Positions 2,188 through 44,277 of a stretch of DNA of 64,000 nt are shown one piece after another. Both the position numbers and the translations under genes were made by a program. The notes beneath the pieces were generated by a model. The model saw nothing but the letters and a program-made list of their open reading frames with translations. It had not been told where the DNA came from and ran no database searches. Source of the stretch: Rickettsiales bacterium (lineage in GTDB: Bacteria > Pseudomonadota > Alphaproteobacteria > Rickettsiales > JABSSG01); assembly GCA_040221415.1 (NCBI GenBank), contig JAVKEN010000014.1, forward strand, positions 732 through 64,731, written 5' to 3'. Numbering within the stretch: the first letter of the stretch is position 1; each line of letters starts with the position of its first letter.

Positions 2188-2481
2188 TTATCCCACGGTT
2201 TCAGCCGCAGATAAAAACTCTGTGAATTTATTAGGGTTAAAAGTTAAATTATTTTGAATTAATTTTTTAAGATTGCGAGCAACAACTAGCTGCTTTTGAT
2301 TACATATCTCGCTTTTAGAAAGCGAAATAAATTCAGCAACTGAGTATAGCAACTCTGAATATTGCTTCTTTTCAATTTTAGAACTGTCAAAGTCTGTAGC
2401 AATTACAAGTATTCTTTGCGCAGAGCTGAGATTCTGCTTTGATACGCTGTCTCGCTTAGAAGAATTTTGTAAATCAGACAT
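2188..2481 (-). CDS. hypothetical protein
   Basis: 97-aa ORF with backbone-like AT-rich composition. No motif recognised. Confidence 0.45.
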   Translation of the reverse strand: MSDLQNSSKRDSVSKQNLSSAQRILVIATDFDSSKIEKKQYSELLYSVAEFISLSKSEICNQKQLVVARNLKKLIQNNLTFNPNKFTEFLSAAETVG

Positions 2482-3075: not shown

Positions 3076-6000
3076 TTATGATATAGTGCAGCCAATATTT
3101 CCACCAACCGTTCCTCCGACTGTATCGCCGGAAGAATCAGAGCCTGGAGAGCCTCTTTCACTTTCTTCACGTTCACGCGCTCTTTCCTCTTCTCTATCTC
3201 GGAAACGAGCTGAACTATCATCAGACTCAGACCTTGATGAGCGTGGTGACACATCAACAATTGGCAAAGGAACACCTGCAGGATCAGCTGCCACTTCTTC
3301 ACCAACACCTGCCCCCCTTACACGTCGCTCTCTTTCCTCAGAGTCACTAGCAGCCAAAGCTGCACGCATCGCTTCTGTTTGACCACCTGAAGAATCTCTT
3401 CTTGAAGCATCTACTTTCGAGCCAGAGGGAACAGATCTAACTTCGCGCTCTTCATCTGAACTATCACCACCTGAACTACTATCACCACCTGAACTACTAC
3501 CGCCACCGAAGACTGACGAAGATGTAGCTGGTGATAAGTCTGAATCTGAATCTATTTCTGCTGGTGGTGCAGCAATTGCTCTTACAGTGCTTCCCTCAGG
3601 CTGTTCATTTCTATCTAAATAAGCAAATGCATCTCTAAGGTACACAGAGTTAACTTCGTCTTCTTGATCGTGGTCTTCATCGTTTCGATGAGCTCTTGCA
3701 ACCTCAAGCGCAAGCTTCCAGTGATCCTTATCAAATTCTTCTCTAGCATCAAAAGAAGCTTCTAGATCGCCTCCTCCTCCAGGACTCAACCTAGCTTCAC
3801 GTGTAACATGTGCCTCTACCTCTACAAAATCTTTAGTAATTTCTTCCTTTTTATTATACACGCCAGCAACAGTCCTAAGTTCTGAGACTACAGGCCTACC
3901 ATAAGCATCAGTAGCCCCACCTATTGGGCGCGCAACTCCATCTGTATCATGTGCAACTCTGTAAAATACTGCGCCTGCTCCCGGGGTGGGAACTGCCCCA
4001 TGTGGAAACGGAGATACTTCACGAGAATCCTTAGACGATGTTGTACTTGAAGATCCAGAATCCGAATCAGATTCAGAAGAATCACCAGGTGCAACTACTC
4101 TTACTCGTGGACGATTAGGTATTGCCGCATTTGCACCAAACATCCATGAACTAATAAATTCAGGAAACCTTGCTCTTGCAGTAGCCTCAGCTTGGACATA
4201 TGCCTGATTCTTTCTAATATCCCAACCTTGCCTAGCCCAATCAACAAATTCACCGCCACGCCTTTCAACGAACAAAGAGGTGTTATAAGCAAGACTTCCT
4301 AAAGTAGGCGCTTCTTCCATTACTTTCGCTGCAGATTTAGAAGCCATTTTTGAATGTTTTGCATTCCTCTTCTCCCTTCTGACTTCCTTAACATCTATGA
4401 CTTGTGAAATCATATTATGGATATTGAACTTATCCTCTTGTGTTAAATCATGAGGGCGAAATACTTTCTTGAATGCTTTCAAAGTATCAAAAAAATCAGG
4501 CGGAATCTCAAAGCTACCACCTTCTAACTTAGCTCGCTCTGCAATGCTTCGAAGCTTATCACGCATTGTTCTAAGCAAAATTCTTTTCTGCTTAGCGTAC
4601 AATTCGCCAGCCATACGTTGCATAAATTGATCACGGCTTTCTGTGCTGAATGTAAAGCTCATCCTGCTTTTTAAGTCTTGCGCAGCAGAAACTATTGGCG
4701 CTACAATTTTATTAATGTTTTTATATTGCCATATTGAGAATGCGCCAGCAAATGGAGCAGCAACCGAAAAAGCAACCAATAAATTTTGTGGTGAAAATAA
4801 GAATCCAAATGCCCAACTAGTTACTCCTAGCATACCAGCACCAATACCTAAAGCCAGTATAAATGTATAAAAGGCAATTGCTTTCACTCTATTTTTTTCA
4901 AGGTAGCTGATGCTTGAAATTAATTTTTGCTCATTCTCTCGAGGATGACGCCTTAACTCGCGACCATTCTGGAATGCACGATCAGCTGCTGCTGCAACTC
5001 TTACCGCTCCATCTGCCGAGAATGCTGCTCTAACTGCTCGATCAGTAATTAAATTATTAGCAATCAAAACGCTGACTAAACCACGAGCAAAATCAAAGGC
5101 AAAAACCTCTCCCCAAACAATTCCTGTGTACCTTAAGAAGTCCCCAAATGGATTACGAGTATCATAAGTTCCTCTTGCTTGTTGTGAAGCATAACTTGCG
5201 GAAGATAGCACGCCTTTGGAAGCAAAATAAGTTAACAGAGCTGATGTTGTAGTTTTCATTAACGACGAATCGCGTGATAACATTACAGCGCCACCAACCA
5301 GCATAGCCAAAGAACCAGCAATAATATTTTGCCCAGTTCTTTCTTGTTCAAGCGATTTTTCTATTGGCAATTGTGGGTTAAAGTTACCTTTCTTAATTTC
5401 ACTTTCAACAAAAGCTAATATCTCTGGCCAATTCATTGCACGTGGAGACTTTCTTGTTGTTCCTTTATAGAACCAATTCATAGCCTGATCTATATAGTGA
5501 TAACATTTTTTTATATAAGCTTGCTCTGCCCTACCATATTGTGATATTAGATCTCCTAATTCTGATGGAATTTCTCTAACATCCTCGTCTCTTAACTCTG
5601 CTGAAAGAAAATAATCAGTACCATATCTAACTACCGTGCCTGCTAAACCAGCCGACAAGGGACTCACGAACGGCATGCTTAATGTTGAAGCAGCTAAACC
5701 AGCTGCTGTAGATGCAGCATGAACACCATGCAAGACTTCCTCTCGTCTTCTCTCAGACTTACTTTGAAGATTTATAACGTCAATATTATCACCCTTAATG
5801 CTTATAAGAACATCTTGAATATTGTTGTTACGCGCTCTCTTACCTGTGTTTGGTGGGAACTCCGTCACAGGCTTAACAAACCAGACCCCTGTTATGTTTC
5901 TTCTAGATCTTGTTGCGTCATCAATTTTTGTTGATCTAATAGTATTTTCATCAACCATTAGATCGGATAAATCTACATTAGTGAGCTTTACACCTGCTAA

Positions 6001-9000
6001 ATTCGCACCATTTAAATTAAGATTTTCGGTTTTTACTTTTTCACCATTAATAATCAGACCTTGCAAGTCACAATGCGAAAGATTTGCACCACCAAGATCA
6101 AGCTCTTCTTCTATTCCTAACTCATCTCCGTAACTAAGGCCATTAAGCTCTGATAAAGAAATAATTGTGGTATATTTCTCAACTTCAACTTTTTTAGTTT
6201 CTTGATTAAACTTAATACCGTGCTCCTCAAGCTCACCCGCCTCTTCCTGAAATTCCTTTTTAGTAGTCAGCACATAATTAACAAAATCAGCGAATTTTTT
6301 TCGAGATAGAATTATGTCTTGTTCGCTAATCTTTATATCTGGATCACGCAGAACCATCTTTCTAAATTCCTCTGGACAATGATCTAAATTTCTAAGCTCG
6401 GCATACAAGGCAAGTAAATTTGTATTAGTCAAAGAAACAACTAAAACCCTTTCATCTTCTACGTGATGAAAAACTCTTACATCCTCACTTCTCAACTTTG
6501 TAGAAAAATACCTCAGTCTTTTTTTCGGAGTTCTTAAATCTCTGGCCATCATGATACCCCCACCAGAGCCAAAGGCGCTAGAGCCAGATCTTAAGCGCTC
6601 TCCTTCTCTCTCTTCGGATGCTGCTCGCAAAGTCGCACCCCTAAAACTCGATGCACCATGCACACTATGTCTGGGCCTATCCGATCTGGGGGAAAACATT
6701 CTCTCTGTAAAGCTATCAGAGTGACTCATATTAGGTCGCGATGTTACTCTTGCCATAGGAGCAACGCCTTTGCGTGTGCCAGATGAACTAGTTAGCGAGG
6801 CACCATCTTCATCAAAAGTAAAAGCCCTTTTTCGTCTTCTTTCAGGGGAATAAGCAGTAGCAAAATCTGCAAGGACACTTGATGCCGAAGGTGCTATTCT
6901 TCTTACACGGAGACTTCCCAATCCCGCACCTAAACCCATCCCCTCATCACCAGAAATACTAGACATTCTCGATACATCCCGGGCGATTCTCTCACCTTCT
7001 GCTCCTAAAGATCTTATTGCATCTATACATAAAACTGATGACTTAGCTTCCTGTATTGGGTCTGCTGGATCACGCGGAACCCGGATAATTGTGTCTGCTA
7101 GATATCTTGCTCTTGTTAAATGATCAAATTTGTCTACTTCATAGCCAACACCTCCTGCTAAGGCAGATTCTCCATCATTTATAAGCTTTGATACAATAGA
7201 AGTTGCAGCAAATCCTTTTGTTCTTTTTTTACGTAAAACATACTCTTCTACAGTTTCATGAGGCTTTTTGCCTTTTGATCTTGTTTTACCTACAAATGAA
7301 TCTACATTAGTTACGCCAGCTGACCATACAACGGCCTCATCACCAAATTCAAGTCTTTCACCTTCTTGAGTAATTGCAAAGAGTCCTAAAGCTACTTCTG
7401 TTTTGAGGCCTTTAAAACTTACGCCTTCTTTAAACTCAGTCCCTGACTTTCTTCCATAAATTGCTCCAATGCCTAACTGGACATGGTCCAAAGAAACTTG
7501 TGAAAGCACGGCGTCATCAACTGTCAGCCTGCCAAATTTCGCTTTTGTACAGTTAAGATTTTGAACATCACCACCTGTAATGAGTAATTTACCCACCTCA
7601 ATTCTTGATAAGTCAACTTTAAAATCCGGAACAATTGGGCCTTCAAGAACAACCGTCATGTGACGACAAATCTCATCACGTAAAGGAAAGCTCTTAGGAA
7701 CGTCTAATTCAGGAGGAACATCTCTTTTTTCTGGGTTATTAGCAAACAATCTAAGTAAGGCTGCATACGGAATACTTCCCTCTTTCTCTAGATCAGCTAA
7801 ATAATAATTTAATAAAAATTCTTCAAAGGAGATTCCTGGTTCTACTCGTTCAGTTCTGCCACCTGCACAACCTACGCAACCTCTACCTTGAACACGAATT
7901 TCTTTTTCTAGCAAATGACGATTAAATTCAGCATAGGCTTTGAGAATATTAAAATTTTGCGCATTAATTGTAACAATTATTTCCATTGTAAGTGGATTCA
8001 TCGAAAGAATTAACCCATCATAATCTGGAAAATAATCACACTCTTCTTTTGCCACTCTTTCTTTTACTGCATCAACAGCTTGCTGAATGTAAATTTCACC
8101 ACATGGGTTTAGAGTATCTTCAACCCCATGTTCGGAAGCGAGAGCTGCTATAGCTGCTTCATTCACCTCTGCTCTAGCTTGCTCCATAAGACTTTTAACG
8201 CGGCGTATGCCCCCTGGAGTCATCGCCCCTGAAGCTCTTGCTGCTTCTGCTGCTATTGCATCCGGGTCGACTTCTACGGCATCCTCATAATCACTAAACT
8301 CGTCTAATACATCTTCTGCATCGTGATAGCCAACCCTTCTTCTAGGTGGGCCATAATCTTCAGTTACGATACTATCCGCAACTGAGTCTACTTCAGATGA
8401 CGCCAAACTCTCATCTGGACTGCCGCCTCCTCTTATGCCGGCAATTGCCCTAGCAATTGTAGCTAAATTAATTGTCTTATTTTTAGGAGTAGTTGTCTCT
8501 CCCTCTGTAGCACGTTCCCTTGCTGCAAGCTCGTGGCTAACTGCAGCTAACCTACGCTCAGTTGCTGATGCATCACCCCCAAATACTCCAGCAGCACTTA
8601 TAGACATCTCTCGAGTCAAGCGCATCGATTCTTGTTTAAGCTCTCTTGTTGTCAATCCGTCAAGCGGAGGACTAGGTCTCTCTTCATCTGAGTTTTCTAT
8701 GCCAGGCATGTACGTGCTGTGAGGTGCTGCCCATACATCAGTTCTTCGACCATCAAGGTTACCTGATGGAGGAGCAATTGGCCTTCTTCTACCTGGACCA
8801 CCAAGTTTTCTTAAAGCTGCTCTTCTTTCATTCTCCTGAGGATCAGAAGCACTCTCCGCTACCTCTCCAAAGGTTCTTTGCAAAGCTAGTCTACGAGACG
8901 ATGCTCGCCTTAAGAAACTTCCTGGACGCGGCGGAGAAGAAACGCCTCTAGCACTCCCTGAATATAAACCAGAACCTCCTGGGCGTGGCAAATCATCTCT

Positions 9001-9309
9001 ACCAGTAGGAAATGCACCAACTAAACTTGTTGGCTCATCTTCTTTACCCTCGCCATCATCCCTGAAAGACGGAGGTCCACCGCCGCCTTCTTCAGGATCA
9101 TAATATCTTGGATCAGTTGGTGGAAAACCTGGAGAGCTGCCAAGATGGCTAAGCTCATAATCACGTCTTATTGCGCTACGTCTTGTTGCGCTAGCCTCTC
9201 TTAACTCATCATAACGAAAATCTTCCTCCTCGCCTTTATCACCTTTACCTCTACTCGCTGCTCCAGCACCTCTTGCTGACCAACGCCCCCTTCTCTTACT
9301 ACCTGACAC
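3076..9309 (-). CDS. giant (2077 aa) low-complexity / pentapeptide-repeat / multi-TM protein with a CaaX-like C-terminus
   Basis: Single uninterrupted 6.2-kb ORF. GTG start reads MSGSKRRG with GAGG 9 nt upstream. The first ~420 aa are G/R/P/E/S-rich. Two related modules each end in A(D/N)LXX-type pentapeptide repeats. A hydrophobic block follows at about aa 1200-1540, then an S/D/G/E-rich tail ending ...GGNIGCTIS. Confidence 0.85.
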   Translation of the reverse strand: MSGSKRRGRWSARGAGAASRGKGDKGEEEDFRYDELREASATRRSAIRRDYELSHLGSSPGFPPTDPRYYDPEEGGGGPPSFRDDGEGKEDEPTSLVGAFPTGRDDLPRPGGSGLYSGSARGVSSPPRPGSFLRRASSRRLALQRTFGEVAESASDPQENERRAALRKLGGPGRRRPIAPPSGNLDGRRTDVWAAPHSTYMPGIENSDEERPSPPLDGLTTRELKQESMRLTREMSISAAGVFGGDASATERRLAAVSHELAARERATEGETTTPKNKTINLATIARAIAGIRGGGSPDESLASSEVDSVADSIVTEDYGPPRRRVGYHDAEDVLDEFSDYEDAVEVDPDAIAAEAARASGAMTPGGIRRVKSLMEQARAEVNEAAIAALASEHGVEDTLNPCGEIYIQQAVDAVKERVAKEECDYFPDYDGLILSMNPLTMEIIVTINAQNFNILKAYAEFNRHLLEKEIRVQGRGCVGCAGGRTERVEPGISFEEFLLNYYLADLEKEGSIPYAALLRLFANNPEKRDVPPELDVPKSFPLRDEICRHMTVVLEGPIVPDFKVDLSRIEVGKLLITGGDVQNLNCTKAKFGRLTVDDAVLSQVSLDHVQLGIGAIYGRKSGTEFKEGVSFKGLKTEVALGLFAITQEGERLEFGDEAVVWSAGVTNVDSFVGKTRSKGKKPHETVEEYVLRKKRTKGFAATSIVSKLINDGESALAGGVGYEVDKFDHLTRARYLADTIIRVPRDPADPIQEAKSSVLCIDAIRSLGAEGERIARDVSRMSSISGDEGMGLGAGLGSLRVRRIAPSASSVLADFATAYSPERRRKRAFTFDEDGASLTSSSGTRKGVAPMARVTSRPNMSHSDSFTERMFSPRSDRPRHSVHGASSFRGATLRAASEEREGERLRSGSSAFGSGGGIMMARDLRTPKKRLRYFSTKLRSEDVRVFHHVEDERVLVVSLTNTNLLALYAELRNLDHCPEEFRKMVLRDPDIKISEQDIILSRKKFADFVNYVLTTKKEFQEEAGELEEHGIKFNQETKKVEVEKYTTIISLSELNGLSYGDELGIEEELDLGGANLSHCDLQGLIINGEKVKTENLNLNGANLAGVKLTNVDLSDLMVDENTIRSTKIDDATRSRRNITGVWFVKPVTEFPPNTGKRARNNNIQDVLISIKGDNIDVINLQSKSERRREEVLHGVHAASTAAGLAASTLSMPFVSPLSAGLAGTVVRYGTDYFLSAELRDEDVREIPSELGDLISQYGRAEQAYIKKCYHYIDQAMNWFYKGTTRKSPRAMNWPEILAFVESEIKKGNFNPQLPIEKSLEQERTGQNIIAGSLAMLVGGAVMLSRDSSLMKTTTSALLTYFASKGVLSSASYASQQARGTYDTRNPFGDFLRYTGIVWGEVFAFDFARGLVSVLIANNLITDRAVRAAFSADGAVRVAAAADRAFQNGRELRRHPRENEQKLISSISYLEKNRVKAIAFYTFILALGIGAGMLGVTSWAFGFLFSPQNLLVAFSVAAPFAGAFSIWQYKNINKIVAPIVSAAQDLKSRMSFTFSTESRDQFMQRMAGELYAKQKRILLRTMRDKLRSIAERAKLEGGSFEIPPDFFDTLKAFKKVFRPHDLTQEDKFNIHNMISQVIDVKEVRREKRNAKHSKMASKSAAKVMEEAPTLGSLAYNTSLFVERRGGEFVDWARQGWDIRKNQAYVQAEATARARFPEFISSWMFGANAAIPNRPRVRVVAPGDSSESDSDSGSSSTTSSKDSREVSPFPHGAVPTPGAGAVFYRVAHDTDGVARPIGGATDAYGRPVVSELRTVAGVYNKKEEITKDFVEVEAHVTREARLSPGGGGDLEASFDAREEFDKDHWKLALEVARAHRNDEDHDQEDEVNSVYLRDAFAYLDRNEQPEGSTVRAIAAPPAEIDSDSDLSPATSSSVFGGGSSSGGDSSSGGDSSDEEREVRSVPSGSKVDASRRDSSGGQTEAMRAALAASDSEERERRVRGAGVGEEVAADPAGVPLPIVDVSPRSSRSESDDSSARFRDREEERAREREESERGSPGSDSSGDTVGGTVGGNIGCTIS
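3457..3507 (-). repeat. in-frame 18-bp tandem repeat (about 3 units) inside the giant gene
   Basis: TGAACTA(CTA)TCACCACC repeated on the plus strand. It encodes GG(G/D)SSS x3 (protein text ...FGGGSSSGGDSSSGGDSSDEE...). Confidence 0.75.
5953..6099 (-). other. pentapeptide-repeat block 2 of the giant protein
   Basis: DLGGANLSHCDLQGLIINGEKVKTENLNLNGANLAGVKLTNVDLSDLMV (aa ~1071-1119), with clear 5-residue periodicity of the (A/N)(N/D)L type. Confidence 0.7.
7471..7584 (-). other. pentapeptide-repeat block 1 of the giant protein
   Basis: LITGGDVQNLNCTKAKFGRLTVDDAVLSQVSLDHVQLG (aa ~576-613), mapped from reverse-complement reading of 7561-7584. Confidence 0.55.
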
Positions 9310-9421
9310 CCTAGCCTCAATGCATTACTTTAAATTTGCATTAAAGTACAAGAAGGTTAAGAAAGGATTAATTTTCTAGGAAAAATAGAAAAAAATTTGA
9401 ATTTTTTTTCATAAAGCCAAA

Positions 9422-9450
9422 AAGCCTGCATAGGAATGCTACGCAGGCTT
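9422..9450 (-). terminator. rho-independent terminator after the lysine-rich protein gene
   Basis: Stem AAGCCTGC / GCAGGCTT, followed on the minus strand by TTTTGGCTTT. It lies 37 nt downstream of the stop at 9487. Confidence 0.6.
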
Positions 9451-9486: not shown

Positions 9487-9801
9487 TTATGAAAAAAGAT
9501 CTTTAATAAATTCCATTACTTTACAAACAAAACCTTTATTTTGTTTTTTATTATCATTGGTCGCTGTATGTATTTTTACAGGAGCTTTTCTAGCTGGTCT
9601 TTTTGCAGCTGTTTTCTTAGCTACAACTTTCTTAGCAACTGCTTTCTTCTTAGCAGCAGGTTTTTTAGCTACAACTTTTTTTACAGTAGTTTTTTTAGCA
9701 GCAACTTTAGTAGCTACTTTTTTTGCAGCAGGCTTCTTAGCAACTGCTTTCTTTTTTGCAGGTGATTTTTTTGCTTTTGCTTTAGTCATATTCATTCTCA
9801 T
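9487..9801 (-). CDS. histone H1-like Lys/Ala-rich DNA-binding protein
   Basis: KAKAKKSPAKKKAVAKKPAAKKVATKVAAKK... AKK/PAAKK repeats typical of bacterial H1-like nucleoid proteins. Three in-frame ATGs at the 5' end leave the start uncertain. Long antisense ORFs here are composition artefacts. Confidence 0.6.
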   Translation of the reverse strand: MRMNMTKAKAKKSPAKKKAVAKKPAAKKVATKVAAKKTTVKKVVAKKPAAKKKAVAKKVVAKKTAAKRPARKAPVKIHTATNDNKKQNKGFVCKVMEFIKDLFS

Positions 9802-43209: not shown

Positions 43210-44277
43210 TTAGCCAAAGAGTTTTTCTGGCAAAGTTTTTTGATTTAGCTGGGCAAAATAATAATGTCTTAATTGCTTAGCATATACACTCAAAATTCTT
43301 TTGCTCTCAGGTGATAACTTAGATGCATTTACATTCAGCATGCCCTCTCCTTCTTTAGTCAATACAGGCTCTGACATTATTCTTTGCATCTCTTTAGGAT
43401 TCGAAAGTAATTTATCTATGTACTCTGTTAATGCGCGCATATCTTTAAAATCACTTACGTCTATATAAGATTTTTTATTGAAATATTTGCTCGTTGTTTG
43501 TGAATCACCCCAGTAAATCGGAATAGCACCTGCTTCATAAGCATTGATAATTTTTTCAGTAATGTAACCTGGGGCAAAACCATTCTCCATAGATATAACA
43601 AATTTATATTTATTGTAGGTGTTTATCGCATTCTTTGGCAAATCTGTTGACGTAGTTTTTGAACATTTCCCTAGCGCATCTACCTTTGGAAACGCATCAT
43701 GCAAAGCTTTGAATACTTCCTCTCTGTTGCTTGTGCAGTGCCTGAACATGTAAGCAACATTTCGTCTTTCTTTTATCGACTCCAAAGATGGCTTTTTGCG
43801 TGGCAGTGAATTCAAAAATTTTATATCATCCTTATGATATGCTGCAAGTGGTACATACGCATGATTCTTTGCAAGAGACAGATTTGTAGTGAACTCAAAA
43901 AATGGATAGCCTGTCACTCTGTATCTGCGGTATTTTAAAGGTTTTTTCTCAGCTGACATTGCAATGTATGGAGCCCTATTTTTCAATTGATCAACAAAAC
44001 TATTTCTAGCTCTGTATATACTTCTAACTACCAGATTTGGTTTTTTGGTATCTGAAACAATCACCTTATATTCTGGGAACGCCAACTTAATAACATTGAC
44101 GACAAAATTTCCCAGACGAACATGCTCCGCCCTTACAACGAATTCACCGCCTTTTTTGGGTAAATTATTTTCATATTTTACAAAATTCTCATAATAAAAA
44201 GCAGGAATAAATGTACGGTATCTATACCCAAAAATTAAAATAATTATTGCAAAAATAATTAATATTTTTCTCTTCAT
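43210..44277 (-). CDS. GT10-family alpha-1,3/4-fucosyltransferase-like glycosyltransferase with an N-terminal membrane anchor
   Basis: YKFVISMENGFAPGYITEKIINAYEAGAIPIYWGD matches the GT10 signature (YKF.L.FEN......Y.TEK...A......P.Y.G). N-terminal helix KILIIFAIIILIFGY. Confidence 0.75.
   Translation of the reverse strand: MKRKILIIFAIIILIFGYRYRTFIPAFYYENFVKYENNLPKKGGEFVVRAEHVRLGNFVVNVIKLAFPEYKVIVSDTKKPNLVVRSIYRARNSFVDQLKNRAPYIAMSAEKKPLKYRRYRVTGYPFFEFTTNLSLAKNHAYVPLAAYHKDDIKFLNSLPRKKPSLESIKERRNVAYMFRHCTSNREEVFKALHDAFPKVDALGKCSKTTSTDLPKNAINTYNKYKFVISMENGFAPGYITEKIINAYEAGAIPIYWGDSQTTSKYFNKKSYIDVSDFKDMRALTEYIDKLLSNPKEMQRIMSEPVLTKEGEGMLNVNASKLSPESKRILSVYAKQLRHYYFAQLNQKTLPEKLFG

Follow-up and report, generated by a model that had tools for sequence, protein, structure and literature searches.

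What role could be played by a protein of 2077 amino acids (aa) that combines pentapeptide repeats, hydrophobic helices and a C-terminal cysteine-aliphatic-aliphatic-X (CaaX) box, and that is encoded by a single open reading frame (ORF) among the genes for phage-like particle heads in a bacterial chromosome? The ORF lies on the minus strand of a 64,000-nucleotide stretch of contig JAVKEN010000014.1 from a Rickettsiales bacterium; the whole stretch was analysed and is referred to below as the window. The giant protein is best explained as the founder of a very small and hitherto undescribed family of giant, effector-like proteins, and on balance it is probably a translocated effector, whose hydrophobic helices, together with host farnesylation, would fix it in a host membrane with its pentapeptide platforms in the cytosol.

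The giant ORF is a genuine gene, as indicated by its coding signature, by a GAGG preceding the start codon and by intact homologues in other assemblies. In every 100-codon block the GC content is 0.17–0.32 at the third (GC3) and 0.44–0.69 at the first codon position (GC1), which is the pattern of argS, gatA/B, ettA and iscS in the same window, and since this signature is uniform, low-complexity stretches included, all 6.2 kb are therefore coding. An earlier annotation made from the sequence alone, here called the original prediction, had already recognized the GTG-started frame, whose translation opens with MSGS... and closes with ...GGNIGCTIS directly before the stop codon, and all the peptides quoted there are found where they had been placed (MEIIVT... 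at 442–470, VLVVSL... at 955–982, AIAFYT... at 1477–1505, VAFSVA... at 1512–1527 and CTIS at 2074–2077). A terminator-like hairpin intervenes between the gene and the Lys/Ala-rich gene upstream, which suggests that the giant gene has its own transcription start; this hairpin is omitted by the consensus terminator scan owing to its loop of more than 8 nucleotides (nt), and in the consensus scan for promoters and terminators the real sequence was no different from shuffled sequence. Tandemly repeated DNA is a minor component of the gene, with 2.7 copies of an 18-bp unit in the part encoding the tail. About half of the protein is of low complexity and no database family matches it, which might be taken as signs of a sequence without function, be it an ORF that is long by chance, a product of misassembly or a pseudogene in decay, but such a reading is hardly credible and already effectively refuted by the uniform codon-position GC across the 6.2 kb, by intact homologues of 1488–2422 aa from three independent assemblies and by the alignment shared with them, which contains invariant motifs within the core.

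The relatives of the giant protein are few. An exhaustive HMMER search with residues 421–1600 against 1.84 billion cluster representatives returned exactly three proteins that match the non-repeat parts, all of them from uncultured bacteria: P0001 (1687 aa, E = 2e-134), P0002 (2422 aa, E = 7e-110) and P0004, a fragment whose full-length form P0021 (1488 aa) is the most distant member. The other 16 matches cover the pentapeptide stretch only and belong to ordinary pentapeptide proteins. The contig of P0002 is recorded as a metagenome-assembled genome, Alphaproteobacteria bacterium isolate Co_bin.286, P0001 and P0021 originate from assemblies of public sequencing runs, and the family seems to occur in alphaproteobacteria that live as symbionts of eukaryotes, a placement based on the P0002 record and on the type of head gene cluster around the giant gene. 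No record was identical to the sequence of the giant protein, a genome scan with the single sequence as query gave nothing and with the alignment A2 only the P0002 contig, and scans of metagenome and viral contigs for the family gave nothing either. A word-indexed protein search with the full-length query produced no match, probably being swamped by low-complexity words, and with alignments of module B plus the core or of the core alone its matches were limited to P0004 and one unrelated protein with pentapeptide repeats; the same search never recovered P0001 or P0002 though its collection holds both, which makes its negatives for this family unreliable. The family, counting four members with the giant protein, is rare and unannotated.

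The domain order is common to all four members, and the overall architecture read off the translation in the original prediction is not only correct but also kept in the sole relatives. In an alignment of the three closest members, conserved blocks alternate with unalignable ones (Table 1). The conserved blocks are two modules, A and B, each predicted to consist of a beta-hairpin, helices and a pentapeptide beta-helix, and a hydrophobic core, whereas the low-complexity head, the linker between the modules and the acidic, Ser-rich tail gave no significant pairwise BLAST match between members. The composition proposed for the head and the tail was confirmed, and a hydrophobic signal peptide is absent from the 402 residues of the head.

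Table 1 Window coordinates of the giant gene, the regions of its protein and the surrounding features. Residue numbers refer to the giant protein.
Feature	Residues	Position	Strand	Basis or remark
Complete coding sequence, 2077 aa		3076..9309	minus	GTG start 9309-9307; TAA stop 3078-3076
Variable low-complexity head	1-402	8104..9309	minus	G/S/P/R/E/D-rich; unalignable between homologues
Module A: beta-hairpin, helices, pentapeptide beta-helix	403-681	7267..8103	minus	kept in P0001 and P0002
Predicted pentapeptide beta-helix of module A, repeats degenerate	565-664	7318..7617	minus	profile match, E = 2e-9
Variable Ser/Arg-rich linker	682-936	6502..7266	minus	composition; unalignable
Module B: beta-hairpin, helices, pentapeptide beta-helix	937-1189	5743..6501	minus	family alignment
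Pentapeptide repeats of module B	1070-1144	5878..6102	minus	PF00805 just under cut-off; family-profile PDB match
Conserved core, predicted all-helical, five moderately hydrophobic segments	1190-1630	4420..5742	minus	family alignment
Most conserved polar motif QQARGTYDTRNPFGDFLRYTGIVWGE, between hydrophobic segments	1376-1401	5107..5184	minus	invariant columns
Hydrophobic hairpin (1477-1505 and 1509-1528, joined by SPQN)	1477-1528	4726..4881	minus	Kyte-Doolittle 2.02 and 1.57
Variable acidic Ser-rich tail	1631-2077	3079..4419	minus	composition; unalignable
CaaX box CTIS, with the sole cysteine of the 447-aa tail	2074-2077	3079..3090	minus	stop codon directly after
Shine-Dalgarno-like GAGG		9315..9318	minus	5 nt 5' of the GTG; read from sequence
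Terminator-like hairpin (AGCCTGC ... GCAGGCT, then TTTTT)		9418..9449	minus	between upstream Lys/Ala-rich gene and giant gene
Lys/Ala-rich, histone-H1/HC2-like small gene		9487..9801	minus	also at 9384-9671 of L001
HK97-type major capsid protein		9939..11108	minus	PF05065, E = 1.7e-77; 57% identity to L001 capsid
Prohead protease (Peptidase_S78)		12078..12503	minus	context
Ankyrin-repeat protein, 240 aa, ending ...GKGSGCCVIS		16000..16722	minus	context; second CaaX protein, same island, 7 kb off
Portal protein		20497..21669	minus	context
MSG-start ORFs		3076-9309, 13852-14298, 14653-15303, 18707-19099, 19143-20429, 29458-30402, 30946-31515, 31936-32589

Evidence of selection is found at the very C-terminus, where the CTIS of the giant protein has the equivalent ends CVVS in P0001 and CAIM in P0002. 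The tails of these three close members differ in length (447, 348 and 864 aa, respectively) and share no significant pairwise similarity (all E > 0.7), and both the giant protein and P0001 have no tail cysteine other than that at position -4, the overall cysteine content being about 0.5–0.7%. According to the known rules of CaaX recognition, a serine or methionine at the X position places a box in the farnesyltransferase class, and lamin B1 likewise carries CAIM; all three ends have an aliphatic a2 residue and either of these two residues as X. Since the cysteine at -4, the aliphatic a2 residue and the S or M persist despite the unalignable tails, the comparison argues strongly that the tetrapeptide is under selection, and its conservation also argues that the CTIS box, rated in the original prediction as weaker than the CVIS of the ankyrin-repeat protein, would work as such. 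The CaaX-like end proposed in the original prediction thereby stands on firmer ground than a single sequence could give it. A third ORF of the window with a cysteine at position -4 ends with CKVY, which is not a canonical box.

The pentapeptide repeats expected in both modules were borne out by family profiles, which match solved pentapeptide beta-helices in the PDB with E = 2e-9 for module A and E = 2.4e-6 for module B. As a single sequence, module B reaches 19.5 bits with the Pfam family PF00805, just short of the cut-off of 20.2, and gives weak PDB matches as well. Proteins of the PF00805 class are defined by A(D/N)LXX-type repeats of five residues arranged in tandem; a five-residue register is discernible at both repeat stretches, residues 565–664 and 1070–1144, and by its sequence-detectable tandem repeats the giant protein belongs to the pentapeptide-repeat class. 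Each structure model is based on an alignment of three or four sequences. The AlphaFold model of module A, from a three-sequence alignment, has a predicted template modelling score (pTM) of 0.65 and consists of stacked beta-strands over residues 544–664, with predicted local distance difference test values (pLDDT) of 73–89. The top Foldseek matches to this model are almost all pentapeptide beta-helices, including the SV2 luminal domain, NleL, SopA, Rfr, Qnr and MfpA, although none of them is significant (best E-value 0.04); a right-handed quadrilateral beta-helix, the fold typical of the class, is thus a prediction for module A. The model of module B together with the core is poor (pLDDT 46.7).

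Modules A and B likely stem from an ancient duplication, as had been proposed, although the sequence comparison demonstrates this weakly. BLAST finds no self-match between them, with the best E-value of 0.07 falling inside the repeats. When profiles of three sequences each are compared, the modules align collinearly over 173–216 columns, pairing ...EIIVTINAQNFNILKAYAEFNR... with ...ERVLVVSLTNTNLLALYAELRN... in agreement with the original prediction; the local score of 32.7 exceeds that of column-shuffled controls (14.1 ± 2.7, maximum 24.6), as does the global score (22.5 against 3.1 ± 1.9). For the N-terminal sub-domains alone the signal is marginal (P = 0.02, z = 3.9); z is 4.3 for the repeat parts. 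The order of predicted secondary structure elements is identical in the two modules, and the distant P0021 likewise carries two of them.

The block of hydrophobic helices is real and is shared by all four members as five moderately hydrophobic segments, centred near residues 1211, 1340, 1408, 1490 and 1510. Their Kyte-Doolittle peaks of 1.4–2.0 lie below those of the transmembrane helices of an amino-acid permease encoded in the same window (1.7–2.8). The fourth and fifth segments form a hairpin that is the strongest transmembrane candidate and is kept in all four members. Polar motifs between the predicted helices are invariant, for example ARGTxDTRNxFGDFxRxxGIxWGE and LRxxPxENEQ. No match to the core was found in Pfam, NCBIfam or the PDB, and these approximately 440 residues with their invariant polar motifs appear to be an undescribed domain that defines the family and merits a family definition.

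The genomic surroundings provide a further clue to function. The window represents a bacterial chromosome of approximately 38% GC, with argS, gatA/B, ettA, iscS, ctaG and cytochrome c genes, as well as several genes for ankyrin-repeat proteins and numerous acidic ORFs without known relatives. The giant gene sits within a head gene cluster resembling those of gene transfer agents (GTAs) and phage HK97, just 3' of the capsid gene, a setting overlooked in the original prediction, and the order on the minus strand is portal, about ten mostly acidic orphan ORFs including the one for the ankyrin-repeat protein that ends with CCVIS, a MazG-like gene, protease, capsid, the Lys/Ala-rich gene and the giant gene. 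The ankyrin-CCVIS box has an additional cysteine upstream that might be a palmitoylation site, reminiscent of H-Ras. The locus of P0001 (L001) is syntenic, with identities of 65% for the portal, 78% for the MazG-like protein, 60% for the protease and 57% for the capsid protein, and the Lys/Ala-rich proteins of the two loci are 59% identical over their C-terminal 27 residues (...NDNKK..KG.FCKV..F.KDLFS). In L001 the giant gene is followed by two small ORFs and then by head-tail adaptor, head-closure and tail genes. The giant protein and its relative share only about 30–35% identity in the conserved blocks, compared to 57–78% for the flanking GTA genes, which implies that its rate of evolution is much higher than that of the proteins encoded around it. 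P0002 and P0021, in contrast, lie outside any head cluster: the former adjoins ankyrin, Sel1 and Exo_endo_phos genes, and at 8720–9820 of L003 P0021 is followed immediately by a Fic-domain gene within a region of ordinary metabolic genes.

Within the cluster of the window (9939–21669, minus strand), the approximately ten orphan ORFs occupy a place where the syntenic L001 (4326–24462) has only three small ORFs, and in L001 acidic orphan ORFs also stand between the genes for head closure and those for the tail. Effector-like insertions seem to accumulate preferentially in the GTA-like cluster. By eye, the ORFs at 1892–2113 and 2188–2481 (minus strand) resemble the pair at 15507–16107 of L001, and the synteny appears to extend past the giant gene, although tblastn of the 2188–2481 ORF against L001 gave no match; the remainder of the first 3075 nucleotides of the window contains no convincing ORF.

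Host delivery combined with membrane anchoring is the best reading of these data because the CaaX box is conserved and the neighbouring ankyrin-repeat protein ends with CCVIS; it is best supported also by the effector-rich surroundings at three loci and the rapid turnover of the disordered regions. We infer secretion, lipidation, topology and target membrane each in turn. The giant protein would be exported into the host cytosol through a dedicated secretion system, which is implied by the lack of an N-terminal signal peptide, and the cysteine of its CTIS would there be lipidated by the host farnesyltransferase. The farnesyl group and the core helices, chiefly those of the hairpin, would then jointly fix the protein in a host membrane, which might be that of the symbiont-containing vacuole or of an organelle such as the endoplasmic reticulum (ER), with the hairpin topology keeping both flanks cytosolic. 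Exposed to the cytosol, the two modules with their pentapeptide beta-helices would act as rigid protein-binding platforms, and the fast-evolving disordered head, linker and tail may serve as spacers or as carriers of short linear motifs. Membrane proteins that must avoid becoming lodged in the bacterial inner membrane are expected to be less hydrophobic, and the segments of the giant protein, being weaker than the permease helices, would fit a protein of this kind.

Several observations weigh against such an effector. P0021 ends with ...LEAGR and lacks a CaaX box, and lipidation is therefore not essential for the core function of the family. No secretion-system genes are present within the 64-kb window. 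The five hydrophobic segments could equally well insert into the bacterial inner membrane, and if the number of spanning helices were odd, a membrane would separate the pentapeptide modules from the CaaX end; the model of the core is too poor for its topology to be read or its fold to be searched. Much of this would suit a protein that resides in the bacterial inner membrane, has very large cytoplasmic domains, is never delivered to a host and uses its cysteine for redox chemistry, metal binding or protein contacts, a possible but unlikely alternative. Such a protein would account for the five conserved hydrophobic helices, for the lack of a recognisable secretion signal and for the boxless P0021, and pentapeptide proteins are common in free-living bacteria, as the ordinary ones among the HMMER matches illustrate. 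It would however poorly explain why a cysteine at -4 followed by two aliphatic residues and S or M recurs in three otherwise unalignable tails, or why a second CaaX protein, one with ankyrin repeats, is encoded 7 kb away. A hydrophobicity below that of genuine membrane proteins of the same genome also speaks against it, and so do the fast-evolving disordered regions, which are typical of host-interaction proteins.

The position of the gene could alternatively mean that the giant protein is an accessory part of the surrounding GTA-like particle, co-expressed with the head genes and serving as cargo, as a release or lysis factor or in attachment. The window and L001 indeed agree in the slot that it occupies, with capsid, Lys/Ala-rich gene, giant gene and two small conserved ORFs following one another, and GTA heads without tails are kept in Rickettsiales and Holosporaceae endosymbionts, for which non-DNA cargo has been raised as a possibility (PMC9254644). 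Nevertheless, such a role is improbable, as P0002 and P0021 are encoded away from head genes, searches of Pfam and NCBIfam gave pentapeptide matches only and none to phage or GTA families, and the terminator-like hairpin and a ribosome-binding site of its own separate the giant gene from the head genes. A protein of 2077 aa with membrane helices is also an implausible capsid cargo, and its evolution is much faster than that of the flanking GTA genes. A bolder variant, in which the GTA-like cluster has turned into a platform and the giant and orphan proteins are co-regulated with the tail-less particle or delivered by it, is very improbable; if true, such a host-directed role would explain why endosymbionts retain GTA heads. 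Between these readings, the translocated, host-membrane-anchored effector is the one retained here.

The start of the giant protein calls for a separate remark. The original prediction had regarded it as a family leader, which did not hold: it amounts to a bare M-S-G or M-S-G-G, with which 8 of the 65 ORFs of at least 120 aa in the window can begin (six of them with MSGG, where chance would predict far fewer than one in total), and the proteins that share it are mutually dissimilar. All eight lack a Pfam match and most are acidic. A paralogous family of MSG-start ORFs was ruled out, as there is neither BLAST similarity nor a common upstream DNA motif between them. P0002 begins with MSGAG, whereas P0001 is without such a start and no ORF of L001 has one. 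The MSG start may act as an N-terminal signature for export or processing. Elsewhere in the window, a gene with a TfoX N-terminal domain, of the competence-regulator family, is located on the plus strand at 18374–18706 in the middle of the orphan-ORF island; the segment 29458–33769 is of higher GC content (0.43–0.44), and its three MSGG-start ORFs and a further ORF of 360 aa all lack a Pfam match; and eukaryote-flavoured genes at 43210–44277, 46201–47868, 47998–49038 and 22685–23515 encode a GT10 fucosyltransferase-like protein, an FG-GAP repeat protein and two more ankyrin-repeat proteins.

Among the known effectors, the best architectural analogue appears to be SrfD of Rickettsia parkeri, compared here via its published domain map. 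SrfD is arranged as PPR1-CC1-PPR2-CC2-TM, where PPR is a pentapeptide-repeat domain, CC a coiled coil and TM the transmembrane helices, and it is secreted, localizes to the ER and binds Sec61, its full-length homologues being confined to Rickettsia (PMC11258249). The giant protein likewise has two separate pentapeptide-repeat domains, helical or coiled-coil regions and then hydrophobic helices towards the C-terminus, and it too would come from an intracellular alphaproteobacterium. In contrast, SrfD is a protein of 957 aa with no reported CaaX box and is without the long disordered head and tail. In the exhaustive HMMER search no non-pentapeptide matches beyond P0001, P0002 and P0004 were found, the SrfD sequence itself not having been compared directly.

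With regard to lipidation, the closest precedent is AnkB of Legionella pneumophila, which is farnesylated by the host farnesyltransferase via its CaaX box and thus anchored to the vacuole membrane (PMC2916131). Both AnkB and the giant protein have a C-terminal C-a-a-X of the same kind on a bacterial protein from an organism living in eukaryotic cells, the latter habitat being presumed for the bacterium studied here. AnkB is, however, a small soluble protein of approximately 170 aa with an F-box and ankyrin repeats from a gammaproteobacterium with the Dot/Icm system, and it has no sequence relationship to the giant protein, which is 2077 aa long and carries hydrophobic helices of its own in addition to the box. 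The neighbouring ankyrin-CCVIS protein parallels AnkB still more closely. The pentapeptide beta-helix as an interaction module within a secreted effector has counterparts in the type III effectors PipB2 and PipB of Salmonella, SopA and NleL, and the latter two are among the top, non-significant Foldseek matches to module A; the giant protein is set apart from them by the lack of an LFNEF motif and of a HECT-like domain, by its organism and by the overall architecture. Membership in the PipB2 family (NCBIfam NF011743) was rejected, as module B scores 18.4 bits against a cut-off of 354 and LFNEF is absent. The inclusion-membrane (Inc) proteins, small proteins of Chlamydiae, which possess type III secretion, have a bilobed hydrophobic hairpin, and the two helices of the giant protein hairpin, joined by the short SPQN loop, resemble it and would similarly leave the flanks on the cytosolic side of a vacuole membrane; the giant protein differs by three further hydrophobic segments, by its alphaproteobacterial placement and by the lack of any known sequence similarity.

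Outside the repeats, no homology of the giant protein to described effectors is detectable, and full-text literature searches aimed at proteins that join two pentapeptide modules to a multi-helix hydrophobic core, to giant disordered arms and to a CaaX box found none described. Taken together, the best reading is that the giant protein belongs with the host-lipidated, membrane-targeted effectors, and the mega-effector inserted in a host membrane of the original prediction is partly supported. Its own membrane helices and two predicted beta-helix scaffolds provide a parallel to the Rickettsia SrfD, whose function remains open. Host prenylation of bacterial effectors has been established mainly for Legionella and Salmonella, and a CaaX box that survives extreme sequence turnover would constitute a clean evolutionary argument for the use of host prenylation also by apparent alphaproteobacterial symbionts.

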